This document shows, piece by piece, positions 10,267 through 49,710 of a stretch of DNA of 64,000 nt (the first letter of the stretch is position 1; each line of letters begins with the position of its first letter). The position numbers and the translations under genes are program-made. The stretch spans positions 76,565 to 140,564 of the forward strand of contig CAZPMN010000003.1 of assembly GCA_964587835.1 (NCBI GenBank), written 5' to 3'. This DNA is from an uncultured bacterium. GTDB taxonomy: Bacteria > Auribacterota > Erginobacteria > Erginobacterales > Erginobacteraceae. The notes under the pieces are model-generated. The model saw nothing but the letters and a program-made list of their open reading frames with translations. It did not search any database and was not told the DNA's origin.

Positions 10267-10485
10267 CCGGAATTGATTGTGCCCGTCGCGGTTCGGGAGG
10301 CGAACGATAACAAACCCATCATAACATCGCGGGCCTTTCGGGGGAACAGAAAATAACCGCCGGATAAGTCACTCCGGGAATAAAAACATTGTTGAATTCC
10401 GTCCGGGCCAATATATTCATAAGAGATCGCACAACCTAAAGGGGGACTGCCCCGCTGATGCGCCGGTACAGCTAGCAGACCGGCA

Positions 10486-11304
10486 GTGACGCTGATGCCT
10501 ATCTCATTCATCTACTGGACAACTTCCCCGGAACTGTGCCAGATCGGTCCGGTTACTATCCGCTGGTACGGCCTCCTCTTCGCCCTCGGTTTTTTCCTCG
10601 GCTACCTCCTCATCCAGAAAATCTTTCGCCGGGAGGGCGTCCCCGAGAACGACCTGGGGACATTGCTCCTTTACGTACTCGCCGGCGCCCTGATCGGGGC
10701 CCGGTTGGGCCATTGCCTTCTCTATGAACCCGCCTATTACCTCAAGCATCCGGAAGAGATCATCCTGGTCTGGCGGGGCGGACTGGCCAGCCACGGCGGC
10801 GCGGCGGGAATATTGATCGCCCTCTTCTTCTATACCCGCCACCGTCCGGCCCAATCATACCTCTGGCTGTTGGACCGGCTGGCGATCGCCGTGGCCCTGA
10901 GCGGGACTTTGATCCGGATCGGGAATCTCTTCAACTCCGAGATCATCGGAACCGCCAGCGACCTTCCCTGGGCCTTTGTCTTCCCTCGTTCCGGAATCTC
11001 TCCGACGGTACCCCGCCACCCGGCCATGCTCTACGAAGCCGCCGCCTACCTTCTGATCTTCTTCCTCCTTTTGATTATCTACCGCCGCCAGGGCCGCCGG
11101 GTCCCTCCCGGGGAACTGATCGGACTCTTCCTGCTCACCGCCTTCACTGCCCGGTTCTTCATTGAATATGTTAAGGTTCCCCAGGCGTCCTACCGGCTCC
11201 CCTTTCCCTTGCGCGTCGGCCAGCTGCTGAGCCTCCCCGCCGTCGCCGCCGGGTTCATCCTTCTGGCGAACAGCCGAAGACGATCGCTGATAAAACGGAA
11301 GTAG
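10486..11304 (+). CDS. lgt: prolipoprotein diacylglyceryl transferase
   Basis: IRWYGLLFALGF, GGLASHGGAAG, PRHPAMLYEAAAY. Collinear with E. coli Lgt motifs. Confidence 0.9.
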   Translation: MTLMPISFIYWTTSPELCQIGPVTIRWYGLLFALGFFLGYLLIQKIFRREGVPENDLGTLLLYVLAGALIGARLGHCLLYEPAYYLKHPEEIILVWRGGLASHGGAAGILIALFFYTRHRPAQSYLWLLDRLAIAVALSGTLIRIGNLFNSEIIGTASDLPWAFVFPRSGISPTVPRHPAMLYEAAAYLLIFFLLLIIYRRQGRRVPPGELIGLFLLTAFTARFFIEYVKVPQASYRLPFPLRVGQLLSLPAVAAGFILLANSRRRSLIKRK

Positions 11305-11305
11305 G

Positions 11306-12100
11306 ATGATGGAAGCCTCAGCTCCCTTCGGAGATGTCGGTATCCGGACCGGAAGGGGTGATTACCGGTCGCCTCCGCGAACACCGGGCTGGCTGGCCCG
11401 GCGTTTCCCGACCGCGGTCTTTTATCTGAAGTTGCTTTGGATTGTCGGTGCGGCCGGCCGGACGGCTCAGCGGCGTGATTACCACGGCCAGGATTGGATC
11501 CGGGACAGTCAGAGGACCCTCAAGGCGCTGGAATCGGTCGGGGTCCGGATTACGGTCGAGGGGACTGACAGCTTCATCCGACTGGAAGCGCCCGCCGTCT
11601 TCGCGGCTAATCATATGAGTATCCTGGAGACTTTTGTTCTCCCCTCGATAATCCGTCCCCACCGGAGGGTCACCTTCGTAACCAAGAAGGAGCTTCTCGA
11701 TTACCCGTTCTTCGGCCCGGTTTTGGCCAGCCGCCGCCCGATCGTCGTCTCCCGGCGGGATCCCCGCCGGGATCTCCAGACCGTCCTGGAGAAAGGCGCT
11801 GATCGCCTCCGGAAGGGAATCTCGGTCATCGTCTTTCCCCAGAATACCCGAATGGCGGTTTTTGACCCCGACCGGTTCAACTCGCTGGGGGTGAAACTGG
11901 CCCGGCGGGCCGGGGCACCCTTGATTCCGATCGCCCTCCAAACGAATGCCTGGGGAACCGGGAAGTGGCTCAAGGACTTTGGCAGAATCTCGCCCGCCAT
12001 ACCGGTCCGGATAGTCTTCGGAACTCCAATCATGGTCCGGGGCGGGGGGCGGGAGGCCCAGTCCGGGCTGATCGACTTTATCTCCCGGCGGCTGGGGTGA
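11306..12100 (+). CDS. lysophospholipid (1-acyl-glycerol-3-phosphate) acyltransferase family protein, PlsC-like
   Basis: Acyltransferase motif region AANHMSILETF (HX4-type block), FVTKKEL, PIVVSRRD, VIVFPQNTR. Immediately follows lgt with a 1-nt gap. Confidence 0.7.
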   Translation: MMEASAPFGDVGIRTGRGDYRSPPRTPGWLARRFPTAVFYLKLLWIVGAAGRTAQRRDYHGQDWIRDSQRTLKALESVGVRITVEGTDSFIRLEAPAVFAANHMSILETFVLPSIIRPHRRVTFVTKKELLDYPFFGPVLASRRPIVVSRRDPRRDLQTVLEKGADRLRKGISVIVFPQNTRMAVFDPDRFNSLGVKLARRAGAPLIPIALQTNAWGTGKWLKDFGRISPAIPVRIVFGTPIMVRGGGREAQSGLIDFISRRLG

Positions 12101-12109
12101 AGTGGTCGG

Positions 12110-12409
12110 TCACAACCAGGAAAACCAGCCCAGATCAAAGATCTCCGACACCGTACCCAGGGCGAGCACGGTGACGTAAGCAATCAAGAGGACCATTCCG
12201 ACGGCCGGACCGTGTTTCTTGAAAAAAGGAAATTCCGAGCGGAAGAGGCAGTAAGCCAAGCCGACAATCCAGAGCAAGAGCGAGATCACCAGCAGACACT
12301 TCTGGGCCAGACTGTACGGTGGGAAGATCCGGGAGAGTCCCCAGAGTCCGCCGAAAATCAGAACCAACAGGATCAAGAAGATCTCCCCGTGGCGGCGTAG
12401 ATAGGTCAT
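12110..12409 (-). CDS. small integral membrane protein (3 predicted TM), hypothetical
   Basis: 99 aa, three hydrophobic segments. Confidence 0.45.
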   Translation of the reverse strand: MTYLRRHGEIFLILLVLIFGGLWGLSRIFPPYSLAQKCLLVISLLLWIVGLAYCLFRSEFPFFKKHGPAVGMVLLIAYVTVLALGTVSEIFDLGWFSWL

Positions 12410-12423
12410 CGTAGCCTCCCTAG

Positions 12424-13455
12424 TTATTTCCTGAGCCGGACTGTTACTTCGACCGTGGCGTCCACCCGGAGGTCGATATTCCGGCCCGGGAGGAACTTTT
12501 CCAGACCAATCCGAATATCCAGTTTCTGTTCCAGTCGCGAAGTGCTGGAAATCACCCGGCCCGCCGGCAGGTCAAAACGGGTCGTCCCGCTCAGCTGGTG
12601 GGAAGATGCAAGCAGGCCGGCCCTCCCCTCTCGCTCTTCGTCCGAAATTTCCTGCCGGAAACTTCCGGTGGTATCGAGCAGGGCTATCTCCCGTTGCGGC
12701 CCGGAGCGATCGCGCAGGGTGGTCTCAAGTTGGATCGACCATTCTTCGCCCTGGTCCCAGTCCCGGTCGATCCCCGGCCCCGGGATTTCCAGGGTCCTCG
12801 ACCAGGATGTCCCGAGCGGGACAGGCTGGAGGGGAAACTCGGGCTGCATCCGTTCCAGGAATGAATCAAATTGGAGCGACGGGAAGAGACGCTCAGGGGC
12901 TTCGGGAACCCGGGCCATCAGAATCGTTCCCCGGCTGTTGACCTGAAATTCAAATTCTTCCCCGACCACCCCCCGGAGGGGGAAATCGTCATCTTCCCCG
13001 GCTACCTCCCTGGTGACTCGGCCTGCTTCCGAGACGAGAAGTTTCCGGTCGGTCAGGTGCACGGATATTTCCCGATTATGAACGGCACTGACCGTGGTCA
13101 GGTCAAAATCCCGGTAGCTGAGTAACAGTTTGGCCTCTCCGTCCGGAAAAACCTGGTCGACCCGGAATCGCATCAGATAGCTTCCCTCCAACCGGACCGG
13201 GAGGCCGATCCGGTCTTCCTCGGCGTCTTCCCGGCCGTAAGTCATCGTCACCTCCCCCTCTCCCCGCAGGGCAACCTCATAGGTAATTTCCTCGCCCGGC
13301 CGGAATTTGTAACGCAAAAGAACGGTTTCCGGCGGCGGGCGGCGGCACCCGGCGGGAAGGCAGATCAGGATGAGCATCCCCAGGCGAAGAATTCCGGACA
13401 GGCGCGGACCAGCCCGCCGAGCGGGTCTCAAGCCGGAATCAAAACGGGAGGTCAC
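12424..13455 (-). CDS. putative lipoprotein, hypothetical
   Basis: N-terminus LGMLILICLPAGC resembles a signal peptide with lipobox cysteine. No recognisable catalytic motifs. Confidence 0.55.
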   Translation of the reverse strand: MTSRFDSGLRPARRAGPRLSGILRLGMLILICLPAGCRRPPPETVLLRYKFRPGEEITYEVALRGEGEVTMTYGREDAEEDRIGLPVRLEGSYLMRFRVDQVFPDGEAKLLLSYRDFDLTTVSAVHNREISVHLTDRKLLVSEAGRVTREVAGEDDDFPLRGVVGEEFEFQVNSRGTILMARVPEAPERLFPSLQFDSFLERMQPEFPLQPVPLGTSWSRTLEIPGPGIDRDWDQGEEWSIQLETTLRDRSGPQREIALLDTTGSFRQEISDEEREGRAGLLASSHQLSGTTRFDLPAGRVISSTSRLEQKLDIRIGLEKFLPGRNIDLRVDATVEVTVRLRK

Positions 13456-39690: not shown

Positions 39691-39726
39691 AAGGCCGCGG
39701 CAGCAATGCCGCGGCCTTTTTTTTAT
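39691..39726. terminator. bidirectional rho-independent terminator (hup on +, malQ on -)
   Basis: AAGGCCGCGGCAGCAATGCCGCGGCCTT followed by TTTTTTT. A-tract on the other side. Confidence 0.8.
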
Positions 39727-41216
39727 CTCCCCGATTCGCCCGCCAGCCGCCGGAGACGGGCGGCCAGTTCCCGGGTCAGCGCACCGGAATCGAACCGCCA
39801 CTCCCACTGACCGGTCGACCGGCCGGGGATGTTCATCCGCCCCTCGCTCCCCAACCCGAGAGGATCCTGGAAGGGGACGATTGCGGTGTCGGCCCGGGAG
39901 TGGAAGACGGCCGCCACCATACCCCAGTTAATCTCCCGGGGATCGGTTCCGAGAAACGACAGGACGCGCTTCTTCATCTTCGGAGAGAGTGTGCGGTACC
40001 AACCCCGACAGGTATCGTTGTCGTGCAGTCCGGTATAGTAGGCGCAGTTTTCGGGGATCCGAGCCGGATGATGGTAATTTCTCGATCCGCCTTCCAGGCC
40101 GAACTGCAGTTCCCGAACCCCGGGGATCTCGAATTTTTTCATCAGCCGGTCCACCGGCTGCTCGATCTCCGCTTCCAGGGCTTCGGCGATGATCGGCAGC
40201 GGCTGGCCGCCCTTTCCCTCCAGGGAACGGAAGAGGGCGGCCCCCGGGCCGCGGACCCAGCTCCCGTTCCGGGAGGAGGGACGGCGGGGGGGGATATGCC
40301 AGCAGGCGTAAAAGCCGGAGAAATGATCCACCCGGACGATATCGACCAGCCCCAGCACCCGCTGAAAACGGCGGCGCCACCAGCCGTAGCCGTCCCGGCG
40401 CATCTGCGCCCAGTCGTAGAGCGGGTTCCCCCAGACCTGGCCCACCCGGCCGCCCCGGGGAGGGGGGACTCCGGAGAGAGCTGAACGCCGGCCGTTTCCG
40501 TCAGCCAGGAAGAGGCCGCGACCGGCCCAGAGATCGGCGCTGTCCAGGTTGACGAAGAAGGGGAGGTCGCCGATCAGCATTACCCCCCGCCGGTTAACCC
40601 GGCGCCGAAAACGTTCCCACTGCCGGAAGAAAAGGTACTGCCCGAACTCGACCTCGGCGATCCGCTCCGCCAGTTTCTCCCGGGCGGCTTCCAGGGCCTT
40701 CTCCTCCCGGCGGCGGAGGGGAGCCGGCCATCGATACCAGGGCCGATAGCCGAGTTCCTCCCGCAGGGCGACGAAAAGGGCGTAGTCTTTAAGCCAGTGG
40801 TCGTTCTCCCGGCAAAATCGGTCCAGCCGGCGGCGGTCCCGGGGCGTGGATTCGGCTCCATACCGCCGGAAGGCTTCGTGGAGCAGGCGCGACTTGAAGC
40901 GGATGACCCGGGAGAAATCCACCCGTCCGGAGGGGAAGGACGGGCGTTTCTTCAGCTCACCTTGCTCCAGCAGGCCCTCACCGGCCAGATCCTCCAGGCT
41001 GATCAGAAGCCGGTTGCCGGCGAAGGCCGAGCAACTGGAATAAGGGCAGTTCCCCGCCCCGATCGGATTCAGGGGGAGGATCTGCCAGAGCTTGAGGCCC
41101 GCCCCGGCCAGAAAATCAGCGAACCGCAGAGATTCCGGGCCGAGATCGCCGATCCCGAACGGTCCGGGGAGCGAGGTCAGGTGGAGGAGAATTCCGGCCC
41201 GGCGGGGAAAGCGCAT
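39723..41216 (-). CDS. malQ: 4-alpha-glucanotransferase (amylomaltase, GH77), paralogue 1
   Basis: RRAGILLHLTSLPGPFGIGDLG, RVDHFSGFYACWHIP, GDLPFF, LHDND. Confidence 0.9.
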   Translation of the reverse strand: MRFPRRAGILLHLTSLPGPFGIGDLGPESLRFADFLAGAGLKLWQILPLNPIGAGNCPYSSCSAFAGNRLLISLEDLAGEGLLEQGELKKRPSFPSGRVDFSRVIRFKSRLLHEAFRRYGAESTPRDRRRLDRFCRENDHWLKDYALFVALREELGYRPWYRWPAPLRRREEKALEAAREKLAERIAEVEFGQYLFFRQWERFRRRVNRRGVMLIGDLPFFVNLDSADLWAGRGLFLADGNGRRSALSGVPPPRGGRVGQVWGNPLYDWAQMRRDGYGWWRRRFQRVLGLVDIVRVDHFSGFYACWHIPPRRPSSRNGSWVRGPGAALFRSLEGKGGQPLPIIAEALEAEIEQPVDRLMKKFEIPGVRELQFGLEGGSRNYHHPARIPENCAYYTGLHDNDTCRGWYRTLSPKMKKRVLSFLGTDPREINWGMVAAVFHSRADTAIVPFQDPLGLGSEGRMNIPGRSTGQWEWRFDSGALTRELAARLRRLAGESGR

Positions 41217-41221
41217 CGTAT

Positions 41222-42712
41222 TTACCTCCCGGAATCCCGGGTCGCCCGGCCAAGCCGGCCGGCGACCTGGTCGGTCAGCATCTTCCGTTCAAACCGCCAC
41301 TCCCACTGCCCGCTCCCGGCGCCGGGGATATTCATCCGCGCCTCACTGCCCAGGCCGAGAACGTCCTGCAGGGGAATGACCGCGGTGGCGGCCGGGGATT
41401 GCTGGACGGCCTGGATAAACCGATGATTGATCTTCCGGACAGTCCGGACGCCCAGATAGTCCAGGACCCGTTTTCGGACCGAGGGGTCCCGGGAGGCGAA
41501 CCAGCCGATCGCGGTATCGTCGTCGTGGGTGCCCGGGTAGGCGACGCACCGGGCGGGATAATTTTCCGGCAGGTGGGGGTTGGCGGGGTTGCCGGAGAAA
41601 CCATGCTGGAGGATCCTGATCCCCGGGTAGCCGAGTTCTTCCAGGAGCAATTCGGTCCGGGACATCAGCTTCGGCTCCAGGGCCTCGCCGATGATCGGGA
41701 GCGTTTCCGGATCTTCGGCCAGCACCCGGAAGAGGGCGGATCCCGGCCCGCTGACCCACCGACCCTCGGCCGAGGTGGTCGCTCCCGGCCTCACGTGCCA
41801 GCAGGCGTAAAAACCGGAGAAATGGTCCACCCGGACGATGTCAAAAGCGGAAAACATCTCGGCAAACCTCAGCCGCCACCAGGGGAAACCGGCCTTCCCC
41901 ATCACCTTCCAGTCATAGAGGGGCATATCCCAGATCTGGCTCACCCCGGCCCGGCTGGGCGGTACCCCGGAAAGTTCCCGCAGCCCCCCCTGCTGGTTGA
42001 TGAGGAAAAAGTCGCGATGGCTCCAGACGTCGACGCTGTCGTGATTGGCGAAGAAGGAGAGATCGCCGATAATCCGGATGCCCCGTTCGTGGGCGTATTC
42101 GCCCAGGCGCCCCCACTGCCGGGAAAATAGATACTGCCGGAAGCGGACGGCGGCGATCCCCGCCGCCTGTTCCGTCCTGGCGGCGCGGACAGCCTCCGGG
42201 CGGCGCCGGGCGATCCCTTCCGGCCAGTCGTACCAGGGGATTCCCCGATACTTGTCCTTGAGGGCGAAAAAGAGGGCGGCGTCATCCAGCCAGCTCGACT
42301 TCCGACGGGCGAATTCCTTCAGTTCCCTCCTCTCCTTCTCCCCGGCATCGGTCAGGAAATTTCGATAGGCCCGGTCGAGCAATTTAAACTTGAACGCCGT
42401 CGCCGCTACATAATCGACCCGGCCGCCGGGAAACCGCGGGGCGGAGGCGAGATCGGAGGAACCGAGGAGACCATCCCCGACCAGTTCCTCCAGGCTGATC
42501 AACAAGGGGTTGCCGGCCAGAACCGCGGGGCTGGAATAGGGAGAGTTCCCGAAACCGAGCGGAGAGAGGGGCAGGACCTGCCATAGCCGCTGGCCCGATG
42601 CCGCCAGGAAATCAATGAAGCGGCGGGCTTCCGCTCCAAGGTCACCGATCCCTCCGGGGGACGGGAGGGAGGTGGGGTGGAGGAGGATTCCGGATCTACG
42701 GGGAAATTTCAT
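41222..42712 (-). CDS. malQ: 4-alpha-glucanotransferase (amylomaltase, GH77), paralogue 2 (tandem duplicate)
   Basis: RRSGILLHPTSLPSPGGIGDLG, RVDHFSGFYACWHV, GTHDDD. Collinear with paralogue 1. Confidence 0.9.
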   Translation of the reverse strand: MKFPRRSGILLHPTSLPSPGGIGDLGAEARRFIDFLAASGQRLWQVLPLSPLGFGNSPYSSPAVLAGNPLLISLEELVGDGLLGSSDLASAPRFPGGRVDYVAATAFKFKLLDRAYRNFLTDAGEKERRELKEFARRKSSWLDDAALFFALKDKYRGIPWYDWPEGIARRRPEAVRAARTEQAAGIAAVRFRQYLFSRQWGRLGEYAHERGIRIIGDLSFFANHDSVDVWSHRDFFLINQQGGLRELSGVPPSRAGVSQIWDMPLYDWKVMGKAGFPWWRLRFAEMFSAFDIVRVDHFSGFYACWHVRPGATTSAEGRWVSGPGSALFRVLAEDPETLPIIGEALEPKLMSRTELLLEELGYPGIRILQHGFSGNPANPHLPENYPARCVAYPGTHDDDTAIGWFASRDPSVRKRVLDYLGVRTVRKINHRFIQAVQQSPAATAVIPLQDVLGLGSEARMNIPGAGSGQWEWRFERKMLTDQVAGRLGRATRDSGR

Positions 42713-42774: not shown

Positions 42775-44259
42775 TCACTCCAGTCGGCGCAACCGGGGGA
42801 TCCCGTACTGGGAGGAGATCCGCTCATCTGCCTCGGCCAGCTCGGCGGCCCCAAAGACGATCTCCCGATCAAATTCCTCGAACCGGAACCGCTGAAACCC
42901 CCCTTCCGGAGATTTCAACGCCGCGGATACGTCCTCGATTTTCGCGATCGGCCGGCCGTTGACCGAGGCCAGGACCAGGTCCTCCAATCCCTGATATCCG
43001 AGATTGACTTCGTCGGGAAGGACCCGGTTCAGGATCACGATTCTTTCCCGGTCCGTCCCGGGCCGCCGCAGATTATAGTAATACTGGTACAAGAGTTTCT
43101 TGCTGGTCCGAAGCCGCCACTGATTTCCCCACTCCTTCAGGTAATCCAGGGTAAGCTCCTGAAAGATCGCCCCACCGACGATCAGGTACTTGGTCACCGT
43201 TCCAAAGCTGTATGGCGGAACCAGGTAATCGGCCAGCTGCCAGCGGCGCAGGTTCATCTCGACTTCCCCCGGCTCGCCGGCGCGGATTAGGTCCAGCCGG
43301 ACCCGGTCGCCGGGGCGGTAAAACCGGGTGATGAGATCCCGGTAATCGAGTCGGCCCCACCGGGGGTCCTCATAGTAACCCTCCGCGTCCAGGGCCCGAC
43401 CGTCAATCGCCAACAGGACATCTCCCTCCTCAAGCAGCCCGGCAGCGGAACCCCGGGGATAGATGCCAGCGACATAGACCCCTCCGGCATCATGGGGGAG
43501 CCGGAGAAACTTGCGAAAGGCGGGAGACCGGGTGGAAGACCCGAAGAAACCCTCGTGGGGGAAGCCGGCATAACCCTCCGGACCGACCGCGGAGAGAAAC
43601 CGGGCGATAATCGTCGCCGGAATTATGGTGGCGTACTGCCGTTGACCGTCATAGGTCATCGTCATACCGACCAGCTTTCCCTCCGAGACCACCGGTTCGC
43701 TCCACCCCCCGCCGCGATCCTCAAAGTTGACCGACGCGCCCAGAGCCAGGAAACGTTCCACCCCCAGGTAGTAGAATTCAACCGAGGCCTTGACCAGCGA
43801 GCCGGGGATGGCCCGGATCTTGTCCGCCTCTTCAAAGACCAGGAACTGGACCGGCTGGTCGAGTTCCACCTCTTCCTCCAGTTCCATCGGGGGAAGATCG
43901 GAGAAAAAGGAAGCGTCATCGACCGTAATCAGGGCCAGATCAACATCGTAATCGATCACCTCGAGCCGGCCCTCAAAGTAACGCTTCTCCCGTCTTTTCT
44001 CCACCTTGATCATCGTAGCGTCCGCGACGATATCGGCGGTGGTGAGAATCTTTCCCGGCGCGACCACGCAACCGTAACCGGAACGGCTTTCTTCCCGCTC
44101 CCGTTTCCAGGGACTGGCAAAGTCGGTCTTCTGACTGGCCACGTGGAGCCGGACCAGGGACGGTTCCGCCGCCGGACCGGCGGCGGAACCGTTCGTGGAA
44201 AACGGGAGCAATAAAAGCCCGGCTAACCCCAATAAGGCCAGATATCTTTTCGCCGTCAT
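42775..44259 (-). CDS. HtrA/DegP-like secreted protein with degenerate catalytic triad (pseudo-protease paralogue) plus PDZ
   Basis: Signal peptide. Aligns with the neighbour, but TNAHVV becomes TTADIV (His lost) and GNSGGP becomes EDRGGG (Ser lost). Asp block DVDLALI is retained. Confidence 0.65.
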   Translation of the reverse strand: MTAKRYLALLGLAGLLLLPFSTNGSAAGPAAEPSLVRLHVASQKTDFASPWKREREESRSGYGCVVAPGKILTTADIVADATMIKVEKRREKRYFEGRLEVIDYDVDLALITVDDASFFSDLPPMELEEEVELDQPVQFLVFEEADKIRAIPGSLVKASVEFYYLGVERFLALGASVNFEDRGGGWSEPVVSEGKLVGMTMTYDGQRQYATIIPATIIARFLSAVGPEGYAGFPHEGFFGSSTRSPAFRKFLRLPHDAGGVYVAGIYPRGSAAGLLEEGDVLLAIDGRALDAEGYYEDPRWGRLDYRDLITRFYRPGDRVRLDLIRAGEPGEVEMNLRRWQLADYLVPPYSFGTVTKYLIVGGAIFQELTLDYLKEWGNQWRLRTSKKLLYQYYYNLRRPGTDRERIVILNRVLPDEVNLGYQGLEDLVLASVNGRPIAKIEDVSAALKSPEGGFQRFRFEEFDREIVFGAAELAEADERISSQYGIPRLRRLE

Positions 44260-44300
44260 TTAAACGTAGAGTTGATCCTGTTATCCCGTCAAAATTACTT

Positions 44301-45788
44301 TTAGGGAGCGGTTAGATAGCGATCGGCGGGGATATGGTACCGCTCGAGGATCCGCTCTTGTTCCTCGGCCGACGCTGCGGCGTCAAGGACCAGCGGGGGT
44401 CCGCCGTCGTCAAATTCCACCAGGTGGTAATCTTCGGACGGATGGGCAAAAGCCCCCGCCAGGTCGGCCAGGGCGGAGATCTTCCGTCCGTTGACCCGGT
44501 CCACCACCTTCTGGGTCAGATTGCTGTAATACTGGTTGACCGGGGCGGGCAAGACCCGGGAGAGGATAACTATCTCCGGGCGTTCCCGGTAAATCCGGTC
44601 CTGGTTATAGTAGAAGAAGTAATAGGCCAGACGCGGATCGGAACGACTGGCCCAGTCATCGCTCCAGGTCTTGAGGTATTCCCGGGAGAGCGGCTGGAAG
44701 AGTAGGCCGGCGAAGATGAAGTACTCCGGTCGGGCTTCATATTCATTCCAGCTTCTCATTACCTCCCGGCCCGCGGTCAAGGATAAGGGAACCTGCATCT
44801 CTTTTCCTTCCCGGATCAGCCCCAGCATCACCCGGTCCCCCACCTGTTTGCGCTCCACCACTTCCTGCAGGAGATAGTTTTCCCCCTCGATTAAAATCGT
44901 TCCATCGTTCTGAATCGGGTTGCCGTCAATCGTCAGGAGGAGATCGCCGGAGCGGACCGCATCCTGGGCCGAATATCCTTTGAGCAGGGCGGTCGCCAGG
45001 ACTCCGGTTCTCTCTTCCGGGAGTCCGGCGTAACTCCGGTGGGCCGGGTTGAGCAGGTTGGCGGTGATGATCCCCAGATCGGGGTAGCCGTCGTAACGGC
45101 CGTCGGCGATATCTTCCAGGAAGTGGTCGATAACCGTAATCGGGATCACGTGGCCGACGTTCTCCGAGGACTGGACCCCCTGGAAGACGATCCCGGCGAT
45201 TTTTCCTTCCCTCAGAACCGGCCCTCCGGAGTTCCCCGGGTTGACGGCGGCGTCGATCTGGGCGATCAGATGGTAATCCCGGCCGGTGTGACTGTAGAGG
45301 GTATAGTCGATCCGGGAGACCACACCGCGGGTGACCGTGATCCGGCGGCCGCCCACCGGGAACCCATAAGCCTCGACCATTGTTCCCAGGGGGGGGATCT
45401 CCCGGTGAAAGTCAAGCTGCGTGGTACCCTCAAAGAATGCCGGATCGAGGACCTCGAGAAGTGCCAGGTCGCAGTCGTGCCCGATGTAGGAAACCACCGC
45501 CTTAAAGGGCGTCCCGCAGTCCTCCTTCTCGACCTCCAGGTAACGGGAGTCGCTGACTACGTGGGCATTGGTCAGGATCCGGTTGTCGGATATGATGACC
45601 CCGGAACCGCGTCCGACGGAAATACTCTTGCGCTGCCAGGGAGAGGCGTAATCCGGGCGCTGGCTGACGTTCTTGATCTTGACGATCGCCGACCGGATCC
45701 GGGAAAGTTCGCCGTCTCCCCCAGCGAGAGCCGGGCGCGCGGGGAGCAGAATACCCAGGCCAACCAGCGCGCAGATGAATCTCCTCAT
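44301..45788 (-). CDS. HtrA/DegP-family (S1C) serine protease with PDZ domain(s), secreted
   Basis: GSGVIISDNRILTNAHVV (His), DCDLALL (Asp), NPGNSGGPV (Ser). PDZ-like GDLLLTIDGNPIQNDG. Confidence 0.8.
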   Translation of the reverse strand: MRRFICALVGLGILLPARPALAGGDGELSRIRSAIVKIKNVSQRPDYASPWQRKSISVGRGSGVIISDNRILTNAHVVSDSRYLEVEKEDCGTPFKAVVSYIGHDCDLALLEVLDPAFFEGTTQLDFHREIPPLGTMVEAYGFPVGGRRITVTRGVVSRIDYTLYSHTGRDYHLIAQIDAAVNPGNSGGPVLREGKIAGIVFQGVQSSENVGHVIPITVIDHFLEDIADGRYDGYPDLGIITANLLNPAHRSYAGLPEERTGVLATALLKGYSAQDAVRSGDLLLTIDGNPIQNDGTILIEGENYLLQEVVERKQVGDRVMLGLIREGKEMQVPLSLTAGREVMRSWNEYEARPEYFIFAGLLFQPLSREYLKTWSDDWASRSDPRLAYYFFYYNQDRIYRERPEIVILSRVLPAPVNQYYSNLTQKVVDRVNGRKISALADLAGAFAHPSEDYHLVEFDDGGPPLVLDAAASAEEQERILERYHIPADRYLTAP

Positions 45789-45789
45789 C

Positions 45790-46947
45790 TCATTCCACCT
45801 TCACCAGGCGGTAGGCGCGGTCGCCCAGCCCGGCGCGCCGGGCGGCATCCAGAAAAGGCTCAAGGTCGACCCCGAAGAGGGTCTGAAACTTGTCCGGAAG
45901 CCTCGGGAGACAGCAGTACTGCCCGGCAATCTTCTCGGTAACCCGGCGGGGTGATACCTTCACCCGCTTGGCCACCGCGGTCGCCCCCGGAATCAGGGGG
46001 GCCCGCTTGATCAGGTCGATCGAAGCCTGGTCGACGGCCAGGATATCTTGGGAAGCGAGAAGCCCCTGGTCGGGGACGAAGGGCGGTTCGCTCCAATCGC
46101 AGCAGTCGCAGTCGGGGGCGATGTCGAGGAGGAAGTTGAGGAAGAGGACCCGGCCCTCTTTGCCCTGGAGCACCGCCCGCGCGTAGGCGGCCGTCTTCTC
46201 GGCTAGGGATGAGGGATCCGCCTTCCAGATTGGGGGGATCGCACCCTCGGGGCAGACGGCGATGCACTCCCCGCAGCCGATGCACTTCTCCCGGTCGATA
46301 ACGGCCTTCCCCTCCCGGTTGAGCTTGATCGCCGAGACCGGGCAGTACTTCACACAGGTTCCACAGCCGACGCACTTCTCCCCGCGGACCTGCGGCTTTA
46401 GATCGCTGTGCATCACCTGCTTCCCGGCCGGGGAGGCCAGACCCATGCTGACGTTCTTGATCGCCCCACCGTAACCGAAGATCACGTGCCCGGTGGCGTG
46501 GGTGATGACCAGCAGGCTGTCGGCCTCCTTGACCGACCGAGCGATCAGGACCTTCCGTTGGCCGATCGCCAGACCCTCCTCCTCCAGGAATCGGTCGGAG
46601 ATCCTGATCGGGGCGCCGATCGACTCCTCGGTGAATCCGTGACGGAGGGCGGTCTGGAGGTGGTCGGCGGTCCGGTGCCGGCCGCCCCGATAAAGGGTGT
46701 TGGAATCGGTCAGGAACGGCTTGGTTCCCAGGTCCCGCAGTTTCTCCACCAGCCGGCGGGCGTAAGCCGGGCGGAGGTAACCGGTATTGCCCTCCTCCCC
46801 GAAGTGCAACTTGACCGCCACCCGATCTCCAGGTCGGAAGATCTCCCCTCCTCCGGACCGGTCAAAGAGGTCGGATAATTTGTCCAGCCAGGACCTTCCG
46901 GCCCGGGCGGTGGGATCGGTGTGATAAACCGTTGCGGTCATCTCCAT
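45790..46947 (-). CDS. DUF362-like iron-sulfur protein with two 4Fe-4S ferredoxin motifs
   Basis: CVGCGTCVKYCP and CIGCGECIAVCP. DUF362-type N-terminal region. Confidence 0.7.
   Translation of the reverse strand: MEMTATVYHTDPTARAGRSWLDKLSDLFDRSGGGEIFRPGDRVAVKLHFGEEGNTGYLRPAYARRLVEKLRDLGTKPFLTDSNTLYRGGRHRTADHLQTALRHGFTEESIGAPIRISDRFLEEEGLAIGQRKVLIARSVKEADSLLVITHATGHVIFGYGGAIKNVSMGLASPAGKQVMHSDLKPQVRGEKCVGCGTCVKYCPVSAIKLNREGKAVIDREKCIGCGECIAVCPEGAIPPIWKADPSSLAEKTAAYARAVLQGKEGRVLFLNFLLDIAPDCDCCDWSEPPFVPDQGLLASQDILAVDQASIDLIKRAPLIPGATAVAKRVKVSPRRVTEKIAGQYCCLPRLPDKFQTLFGVDLEPFLDAARRAGLGDRAYRLVKVE

Positions 46948-46972: not shown

Positions 46973-49710
<2,738 letters not shown>

Follow-up and report, generated by a model that had tools for sequence, protein, structure and literature searches.

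HtrA proteases are normally described as homo-oligomers. In plant Deg2, the hexameric resting cage is locked through a stacking contact between Trp-134 in loop LA and Tyr-440 in the internal ligand of the second PDZ domain (PDZ2), and the protomer is thereby made rigid; an (A/G)G turn comes after this ligand (PMC3481350). Deg7 trimerises via its degenerate protease domain (PMC3194040), and ClpR is an inactive subunit in ClpP rings (discussed in the same work, PMC3194040). MamO, which is dedicated to the magnetosome and binds transition metals via a di-histidine motif, promotes MamE proteolysis (PMC4794232). PflC of Campylobacter jejuni, a periplasmic protease-PDZ-PDZ protein that has lost the triad, uses HtrA-style oligomerisation as a scaffold (PMC12222027). 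Described here is a tandem gene pair encoding an HtrA serine protease and a paralogue without the catalytic triad, located on a 64,000-nt stretch of DNA (hereafter the window) from an uncultured bacterium of the Erginobacteraceae (Auribacterota; assembly GCA_964587835.1, contig CAZPMN010000003.1, positions 76,565 to 140,564). The dead copy is a pseudoenzyme under purifying selection and is conserved across lineages. The dead-type proteins are a large, old family of pseudoproteases that is widespread and, as a rule, encoded together with its active parent; the family is previously undescribed, as no published description of it was found.

The window pair and its lost triad

The original prediction, which had been made from the sequence of the window alone, claimed a tandem HtrA-like pair of collinear, secreted-type proteins of ∼495 amino acids (aa). 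The open reading frames (ORFs) bear this out (Table 1). The pairwise alignment suggested as a check (BLASTP) was collinear and gave 31% identity over 474 aa (E = 4e-62), and both N-termini are Sec-signal-like, with a basic-hydrophobic-AxA-like arrangement and a hydrophobic 10-mer score of 2.8, compared with 0.08 for the DUF362 protein encoded next to the pair. Both copies are thus predicted to be exported to the periplasm. Matches of the active copy to Pfam families comprised Trypsin_2 (2.8e-21), Trypsin (2.9e-14), PDZ and PDZ_3 (PF17815; 1.8e-31); those of the dead copy comprised PDZ, PDZ_3 (PF17815; 2.8e-30) and a weak and truncated match to Trypsin_2 (0.0012). PDZ_2, PDZ_6 and PDZ matches were obtained for both copies in addition to PDZ_3, and the PDZ signal was as strong in the dead copy as in the active one. 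None of the NCBIfam models reached its cut-off for either copy, the MamE model giving a weak match. In the databases, dead-type proteins go by the names "PDZ domain-containing protein", "S1-C subfamily serine protease" and "hypothetical protein"; where they are tallied as S1-C proteases, the periplasmic protease counts in genomes of the Planctomycetes-Verrucomicrobia-Chlamydiae (PVC) group would be too high.

The prediction had also read two motif replacements from the sequence, from TNAHVV to TTADIV and from GNSGGP to EDRGGG(W) when going from the active to the dead copy, and both were confirmed in the two window proteins: Asp replaces His76, and the loop that normally carries the nucleophile is remodelled. 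The third claim, that the Asp block is kept, is correct for the window gene, in which D107 stands within VDLALI, but not for the dead family, in which this position is occupied by Asn in 118 of 149 aligned sequences. Rescue of the triad by re-alignment was tried and rejected. The residue opposite the catalytic serine is R182 according to BLAST and W186 according to the profile alignment, and despite this disagreement neither alignment yields a conserved nucleophile, so that the triad of the dead copy stays unrestored. Its S187 is Gly or Ala in several relatives. In contrast to the dead family, the H, D and S motifs were intact in 12 of 12 aligned active sequences (that of the window and 11 orthologues).

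The best sequence matches of the active copy in the PDB were plant Deg2 (4fln; 1.4e-69) and Deg9 (5il9; 2.9e-66). The dead copy likewise matched Deg2 (4fln; E = 3.3e-43), whereas DegP (∼1e-17 or worse), DegQ and DegS were far behind. Its AlphaFold2 model was confident (predicted local distance difference test score 92.1, predicted template modelling score 0.88) and was superimposed by Foldseek on the crystal structures of Deg9 and Deg2 with a template modelling (TM) score of 0.84-0.91 and a root mean square deviation of 2.2-2.5 Å over ∼470 columns; on DegP-type structures, the TM score was only ∼0.45-0.6. With its protease domain, H/D/S triad and C-terminal PDZ domain, the active copy can be assigned by sequence to the HtrA/DegP proteases (MEROPS S1C). 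The dead copy is a homologue of this family by fold and PDZ domains, but not a peptidase member of it, the triad being absent. Both copies have the PDZ_3-type (PF17815) second PDZ domain by which Deg2 and Deg9 are recognized.

Selection, family and ancestry of the dead copy

The dead copy had been taken for a conserved paralogue beside its active partner, and relaxed selection or frameshifts in relatives had been named as the signs of a decaying duplicate instead. Orthologous pairs for this comparison came from 11 genome loci (narrow-alignment genome scan) and several metagenome contigs. The ratio of nonsynonymous to synonymous substitution rates (dN/dS, or omega) was estimated by the method of Nei and Gojobori (NG86), with a codon bootstrap, for the six closest pairs, the dS values of which (0.4-0.85) are unsaturated. 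For the dead and the active copy, respectively, it was 0.21 and 0.20 (window-L005), 0.24 and 0.20 (window-L006), 0.31 and 0.31 (window-L007), 0.35 and 0.25 (L004-L012), 0.21 and 0.24 (L006-L014), and 0.48 and 0.33 (L005-L007), although GC-driven codon bias may distort the absolute values. The bootstrap upper limits for the dead copy did not exceed 0.61. Relaxation was mild and confined to the protease domain, for which omega was 0.26 in the dead versus 0.17 in the active copy; in both PDZ domains, the two paralogues evolve equally fast. No frameshifts were seen in the relatives examined, and the ORFs were of full length across at least two phyla. The dead copy therefore behaves as a conserved paralogue, as had been proposed.

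Where the constraint sits can be seen from the ratio of the mean pairwise identities in the dead and the active family, which rises from 0.73 in the protease domain over 0.83 in PDZ1 to 1.06 in PDZ2. The elements by which the Deg2 cage is assembled have their equivalents in W51, Y358 and G362-G363 of the dead copy; the active copy carries W, Y and A-G there. Among 147 representatives of the dead family (see below), W51 was kept in 145, an aromatic residue at position 358 in 146, G362 in 139 and G363 in 146. In addition, G237, a glycine of the carboxylate-binding region of PDZ1, was invariant in 57 sequences of the first round of searching. As far as sequence conservation tells, the dead family has preserved the means of assembly and binding rather than the chemistry.

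A first homologue search retrieved 58 proteins, including that of the window, with identities down to 30%, and the nucleophile was absent from all of them. When 1.84 billion cluster representatives were searched with a profile, 1974 matched at E ≤ 1e-30. The best 150 of these were taken; 147 of them were new (representatives of clusters at 50% identity), and 149 sequences were aligned, that is, the 147 and the two window proteins. A third search with a diverse profile recovered 57 of the first 58 proteins and nothing beyond them. The number of clusters at 50% identity in the dead family is thus at least 147, and a hidden Markov model (HMM) of the dead family outscored that of the active family on all 147 representatives. 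Named taxa with dead-type genes are Auribacterota, Akkermansiaceae and Terrimicrobiaceae, and for the Verrucomicrobia-type subfamily alone, marine, freshwater and soil metagenomes yielded at least 519 confirmed stretches. Neither a GNSGG/GDSGG motif nor the H/D/S combination was present in any of the 147 representatives, and the dead family as a whole has no invariant Ser, His, Cys or Lys. The former His position is highly variable: in the alignment of 149 sequences, Asp occurs 24 times, Glu 23, Gln 14 and Ala 13 times, besides many other residues, and His only 7 times. The former Ser column is occupied by W, F or Y in 85 of the 147 representatives.

Six of the 147 representatives keep a His at the catalytic position, as does protein P0052 (locus L017, 5001..6485), which keeps the Asp as well; the Ser is absent from all of them. 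The existence of such His-bearing members of the dead clade suggests that the nucleophile was lost first and that the remainder of the triad drifted later. At the same locus, a gene for a 961-aa protein with Trypsin_2 and P_proprotein domains lies 1.4 kb downstream of that for P0052.

Closer to the window protein, the picture differs. In an alignment of 17 close relatives (mostly Auribacterota, where named), F179, E180, R182, G184, G185, W186, S187 and E188 were invariant, and TTADIV and FEDRGGGWSEPV, which together contribute an acidic cluster, were near-invariant down to 46% identity, whereas these positions vary freely elsewhere in the family. This points to a clade-specific constraint on the remodelled active site of the close relatives.

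In a neighbour-joining tree with a simple distance correction, rooted on the N-terminal halves of Nma111 proteins, the dead-type proteins formed a single clade (94% bootstrap), and the active partners together with Arabidopsis Deg2 formed its sister clade (84% bootstrap); long-branch effects are possible in such a tree, and the Deg2 sequence used, transcribed from HMMER output, may contain small errors. The branching of the Auribacterota and Verrucomicrobiota subclades was mirrored between the two halves, and the pairwise distances within the dead and the active family were closely correlated (r = 0.986). Read from these sequences, the pair appears to descend from one old duplication inside the Deg2-like lineage and to have been inherited as a pair since.

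The dead family was also considered as an orthologue of the degenerate half of Nma111/Deg7. The Nma111 proteins were retrieved with an Nma111 query, for which the database entry P0059 was a 100% identical match. The dead-family HMM, run on ten Nma111 proteins, scored at most 29 bits without preference for the C-terminal half, its best stretches being generic PDZ; on the C-terminal protease region of Nma111, it scored 5.8-7.0 bits. The active-family HMM gave 31-52 bits on the N-terminal half. Precomputed Pfam hits assign PF12812 to the Nma111 proteins and PF17815 to only a few of them. Orthology was rejected, given that the similarity in phmmer and HMM searches is distant and nonspecific and that the duplication lies inside the Deg2-like lineage. 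Since the bacterial duplication falls inside that lineage in the Nma111-rooted tree, the degeneration of the dead family is independent of that in Deg7/Nma111, and the resemblance is convergent.

Linkage of the pair and neighbouring genes

In all 18 first-round loci with upstream DNA, the active gene lies immediately upstream of the dead gene on the same strand. These loci stem from Auribacterota, Akkermansiaceae, Terrimicrobiaceae and four unclassified metagenome contigs, and a few of them coincide, their contig having been reached in two ways. The Auribacterota loci are those of Candidatus Erginobacter, Candidatus Euphemobacter and several metagenome-assembled genomes labelled "PVC group bacterium" or "uncultured bacterium"; the locus of Candidatus Tritonobacter (L011) begins at the contig edge and is uninformative for linkage. 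From the stop codon of the active gene to the start codon of the dead gene, the junctions measure −4 (three times), 3, 6, 31, 41 (window) and 83 nt. The genes flanking the pair differ completely between lineages.

That the pair is always linked was the working claim after these 18 loci, but it was overturned by a scan of metagenomes. Of 80 Verrucomicrobia-type loci, 46 had the active gene directly upstream, 18 had too little upstream DNA and 16 were unpaired; thus, among the 62 informative loci, 46 were paired, and in 16 there was no active-type gene on either side up to a distance of 2.6 kb. At one locus (L018, 3501..5004), the gene calls split the active partner into a Trypsin part of 290 aa and a PDZ_3 part of 216 aa; the contig is of low coverage ("3x" tag), and the split is probably an assembly frameshift rather than real.

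In the direction of transcription, the gene order in the window is LigA, DUF362, active HtrA, dead HtrA and two tandem genes for glycoside hydrolases of family 77 (GH77; Table 1). The original prediction had put the DUF362 gene directly after the pair, where it would be an unusual neighbour for a periplasmic protease. It is in fact located upstream, and its product, which lacks a signal peptide, is probably cytoplasmic. Its stop codon (TGA) is separated by 1 nt from the ATG of the active protease gene (45789..45792 / 45786..45788), and this 1-nt gap suggests that the two genes share a transcript in the window genome. In other Auribacterota, the corresponding gap is 125-179 nt (L004, L001). A functional link to DUF362 as a feature of the family was rejected, because LigA and DUF362 precede the pair in Auribacterota loci only, the neighbours being different elsewhere; LigA-DUF362-protease is therefore best read as lineage-specific synteny and not as part of the conserved module.

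The tandem GH77 paralogues downstream of the HtrA pair are 51% identical (E = 1e-171) and have full-length Glyco_hydro_77 Pfam matches. Locus L001 also has a tandem GH77 pair (10451..13439), there separated from the HtrA pair by genes for a deacetylase and a tetratricopeptide repeat protein. Because of this second occurrence, the window holds a second conserved tandem duplication.

Table 1. Features of the HtrA pair and its surroundings. Positions are those of the 64,000-nt window; all genes discussed are on the minus strand.
Feature	Position	Strand	Description or basis
Active Deg2/Deg9-type HtrA serine protease	44301..45788	minus	495 aa; signal peptide, trypsin-fold domain, PDZ1, PDZ2 (PDZ_3)
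Catalytic His76, active copy (TNAHVV)	45561..45563	minus	motif alignment
Catalytic Asp107, active copy (CDLALL)	45468..45470	minus	motif alignment
Catalytic Ser187, active copy (GNSGGP)	45228..45230	minus	motif alignment
Spacer from active-gene stop to dead-gene start	44260..44300	minus	41 nt
Dead paralogue (pseudoprotease)	42775..44259	minus	494 aa; domain order identical to that of the active copy
TTADIV motif, dead copy	44026..44043	minus	
Asp76, dead copy (TTADIV)	44032..44034	minus	takes the place of the catalytic His; motif alignment
Remodelled L1/oxyanion-hole loop E180-V190 (EDRGGGWSEPV), dead copy	43690..43722	minus	replaces PGNSGGPV; no Ser nucleophile
Y358-G363 (YLIVGG), dead copy	43171..43188	minus	counterpart of the Deg2 internal PDZ2 ligand Tyr-440 and (A/G)G turn; alignment to Deg2
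NAD-dependent DNA ligase (LigA)	46973..48991	minus	translation, and ligase Pfam domains of the counterpart in relatives
DUF362 protein	45790..46947	minus	two 4Fe-4S motifs; Pfam DUF362 (6.6e-39) and Fer4 families; no signal peptide
GH77 4-alpha-glucanotransferase	41222..42712	minus	
GH77 4-alpha-glucanotransferase	39723..41216	minus	

Proposed role and comparison with described systems

Judged from sequence, the pair is best read, with moderate confidence, as an old two-gene module in which the dead protein would be a noncatalytic subunit or partner of the adjacent periplasmic Deg2-type protease. The upstream gene would provide the catalytic subunit, and the downstream gene a pseudoprotease in which the nucleophile is missing but the complete fold, the two PDZ domains and the cage-assembly elements are retained. 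Both proteins would be exported and, if made from one transcript, would be present in roughly equal amounts. The dead protein would then co-assemble with, or dock onto, the active protease in trimer-based cages, where it would offer a noncutting scaffold and PDZ surfaces and either bind substrate or relay activation to the active protomers. It would thereby dilute the active sites of the cage, with its PDZ and loop surfaces available for substrate capture or for allosteric activation in trans. Activation in DegS and DegP passes between neighbouring protomers via loops L3, LD, L1 and L2; therefore, a dead protomer could still serve as a sensor for its live neighbour. Deg7 with its degenerate domain, MamO acting on MamE and ClpR within ClpP rings are precedents which demonstrate that an arrangement of this type can function. 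A regulatory or substrate-trapping role of the dead copy, as originally put forward, is plausible on these grounds, and co-transcription, physical association and a function as scaffold or sensor are what we infer from the conserved arrangement. A more specific version is tentative: the pair may be the free-standing bacterial counterpart of the Deg7/Nma111 design, having arisen independently within the Deg2/9 lineage, and may form an obligate hetero-oligomeric cage in which dead subunits would form the assembly core and act as PDZ sensors gating a reduced number of active sites. If this were true, mixed active/dead HtrA cages would be a recurrent, convergent solution.

Several observations weigh against a partnership of this kind. 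The 41-nt spacer gives no sign of translational coupling in the window genome, and a scan for promoters and terminators stayed at background level and was uninformative on transcript structure. Mirrored trees and adjacency would likewise be seen in any two neighbours that are inherited vertically. The sites that replace the triad are variable family-wide, and no specific new binding site can be named. The 16 unpaired loci are one subclade that contains no paired locus and in which the dead gene is intact (L055, L056, L061, L066-L068, L070, L071, L078, L080, L086, L090, L093, L094, L096, L098; L100 and L102 belong to it, too); there, the dead gene usually follows dapB (L055, L096, L102), with other genes at this place in L100. 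Tight coupling is thus dispensable, and an autonomous role is possible. The distribution as a whole indicates, at the level of gene order, that linkage is ancestral and predominant and was lost once, with the dead gene remaining intact afterwards.

The main rival takes up this last point. The dead protein could be an autonomous, nonproteolytic chaperone or holdase that forms its own Deg2-like homo-oligomeric cages, and adjacency to the protease gene would then reflect a shared quality-control pathway. The conservation of the fold, of both PDZ domains and of the cage-assembly elements would suit such a protein, Deg2 itself is chaperone-like (PMC3481350), and the subclade in which the dead gene persists with no active gene beside it lends weight to it. 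However, the active-then-dead order in most informative loci, in several with overlapping stop and start codons, exceeds what shared regulation needs, and the omega of ∼0.26 for the dead protease domain fits contacts between protomers equally well; an autonomous holdase is considered unlikely, albeit the strongest of the alternatives. Less probable still is a scaffold repurposed for a new nonproteolytic activity in the manner of MamO or PflC, with the acidic pocket of the Auribacterota proteins (D76, D107, E180, D181, E188) binding a cation or another ligand. HtrA pseudoproteases provide precedents (PMC4794232, PMC12222027), and the near-invariance of the two motifs among close relatives indicates that the site is constrained. 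Yet this motif is clade-specific and the three positions vary family-wide, so that it cannot be the ancestral reason why the family was retained; moreover, there is neither an extra domain, such as the membrane domain of MamO, nor a conserved neighbour that would hint at a specialised pathway.

The two remaining explanations concern the dead copy's chemistry and its persistence. Activity via noncanonical residues, for example Ser187 in concert with acidic residues, draws on the fact that the Ser of GWSEPV is only one residue off the canonical position and invariant among close relatives; it is very improbable, since many family members have Gly, Ala or Thr in place of this Ser, the family has no invariant His, Ser, Cys or Lys, the residue at the His position varies, and ∼80% of the aligned sequences have Asn at the Asp position. 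Decay of a duplicate, that is, a pseudogene in the making, could be read from the loss of the triad and from the lower conservation of the dead protease domain (identity ratio 0.73; omega 0.26 vs 0.17). This explanation is already refuted and its residual probability negligible, because dN/dS is well below 1 (with the upper limits given above), the ORFs are of full length in every relative examined from at least two phyla, the family is large both in clusters and in metagenome stretches, and the predicted fold is confident.

Returning to the two-gene module with a noncatalytic partner, its relation to described proteins can be stated as follows. Deg2 and Deg9 resemble the window proteins most in sequence and structure, in a domain order that includes PDZ_3, and in the combination of LA-loop Trp, PDZ2-ligand Tyr and (A/G)G turn. 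They are, however, catalytically active homo-oligomers of chloroplast and nucleus, whereas one paralogue of the window pair is without triad and both have bacterial signal peptides. Among bacterial proteins, MamO and MamE are alike in that an HtrA pseudoprotease works with an active HtrA protease, and MamO and the dead family have a degenerate active site in common. No comparable motif, pathway context or extra domain was recognized for the window pair: a conserved His pair was not found in the invariant columns of the dead family, nor were magnetosome genes found near the pair. PflC shares the exchange of Asp for Asn with most members of the dead family, but differs from the dead copy in its length (364 aa), its place in the flagellar motor and its lack of an active paralogue as partner, and it is not of the Deg2 type. 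MamO and PflC belong to other HtrA branches and to specialised structures. ClpR/ClpP and Deg5-Deg8 resemble the proposed cage insofar as paralogous subunits are mixed in one self-compartmentalising protease; they represent other protease families or other catalytic states and serve as analogy only.

The closest functional analogy is Deg7/Nma111 (Ynm3), in which an active protease-PDZ-PDZ unit is likewise followed by a degenerate copy. There, the two units are fused in a protein of ∼1000 aa, whereas in the window they are two ORFs separated by a stop codon and the 41-nt spacer; no fused active-dead ORF was present among the best 150 of the 1974 profile matches (304-659 aa) or in the 80 metagenome loci. 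The novelty of the pair is that of a bacterial example of a known pseudoprotease idea. As a widespread paralogue that is maintained by selection and in most cases encoded beside its active partner, the dead protein would add bacteria to the mixed active/inactive HtrA systems represented by Deg7/Nma111 and MamO/MamE, and this mixed design would have arisen more than once. Because the two units are separate proteins, the part that the degenerate one plays in assembly, substrate capture and allosteric activation is directly testable, which is awkward in the fused eukaryotic enzymes; should the proposed counterpart to Deg7/Nma111 prove true, the pair would be a tractable two-protein system for the role of their degenerate half.

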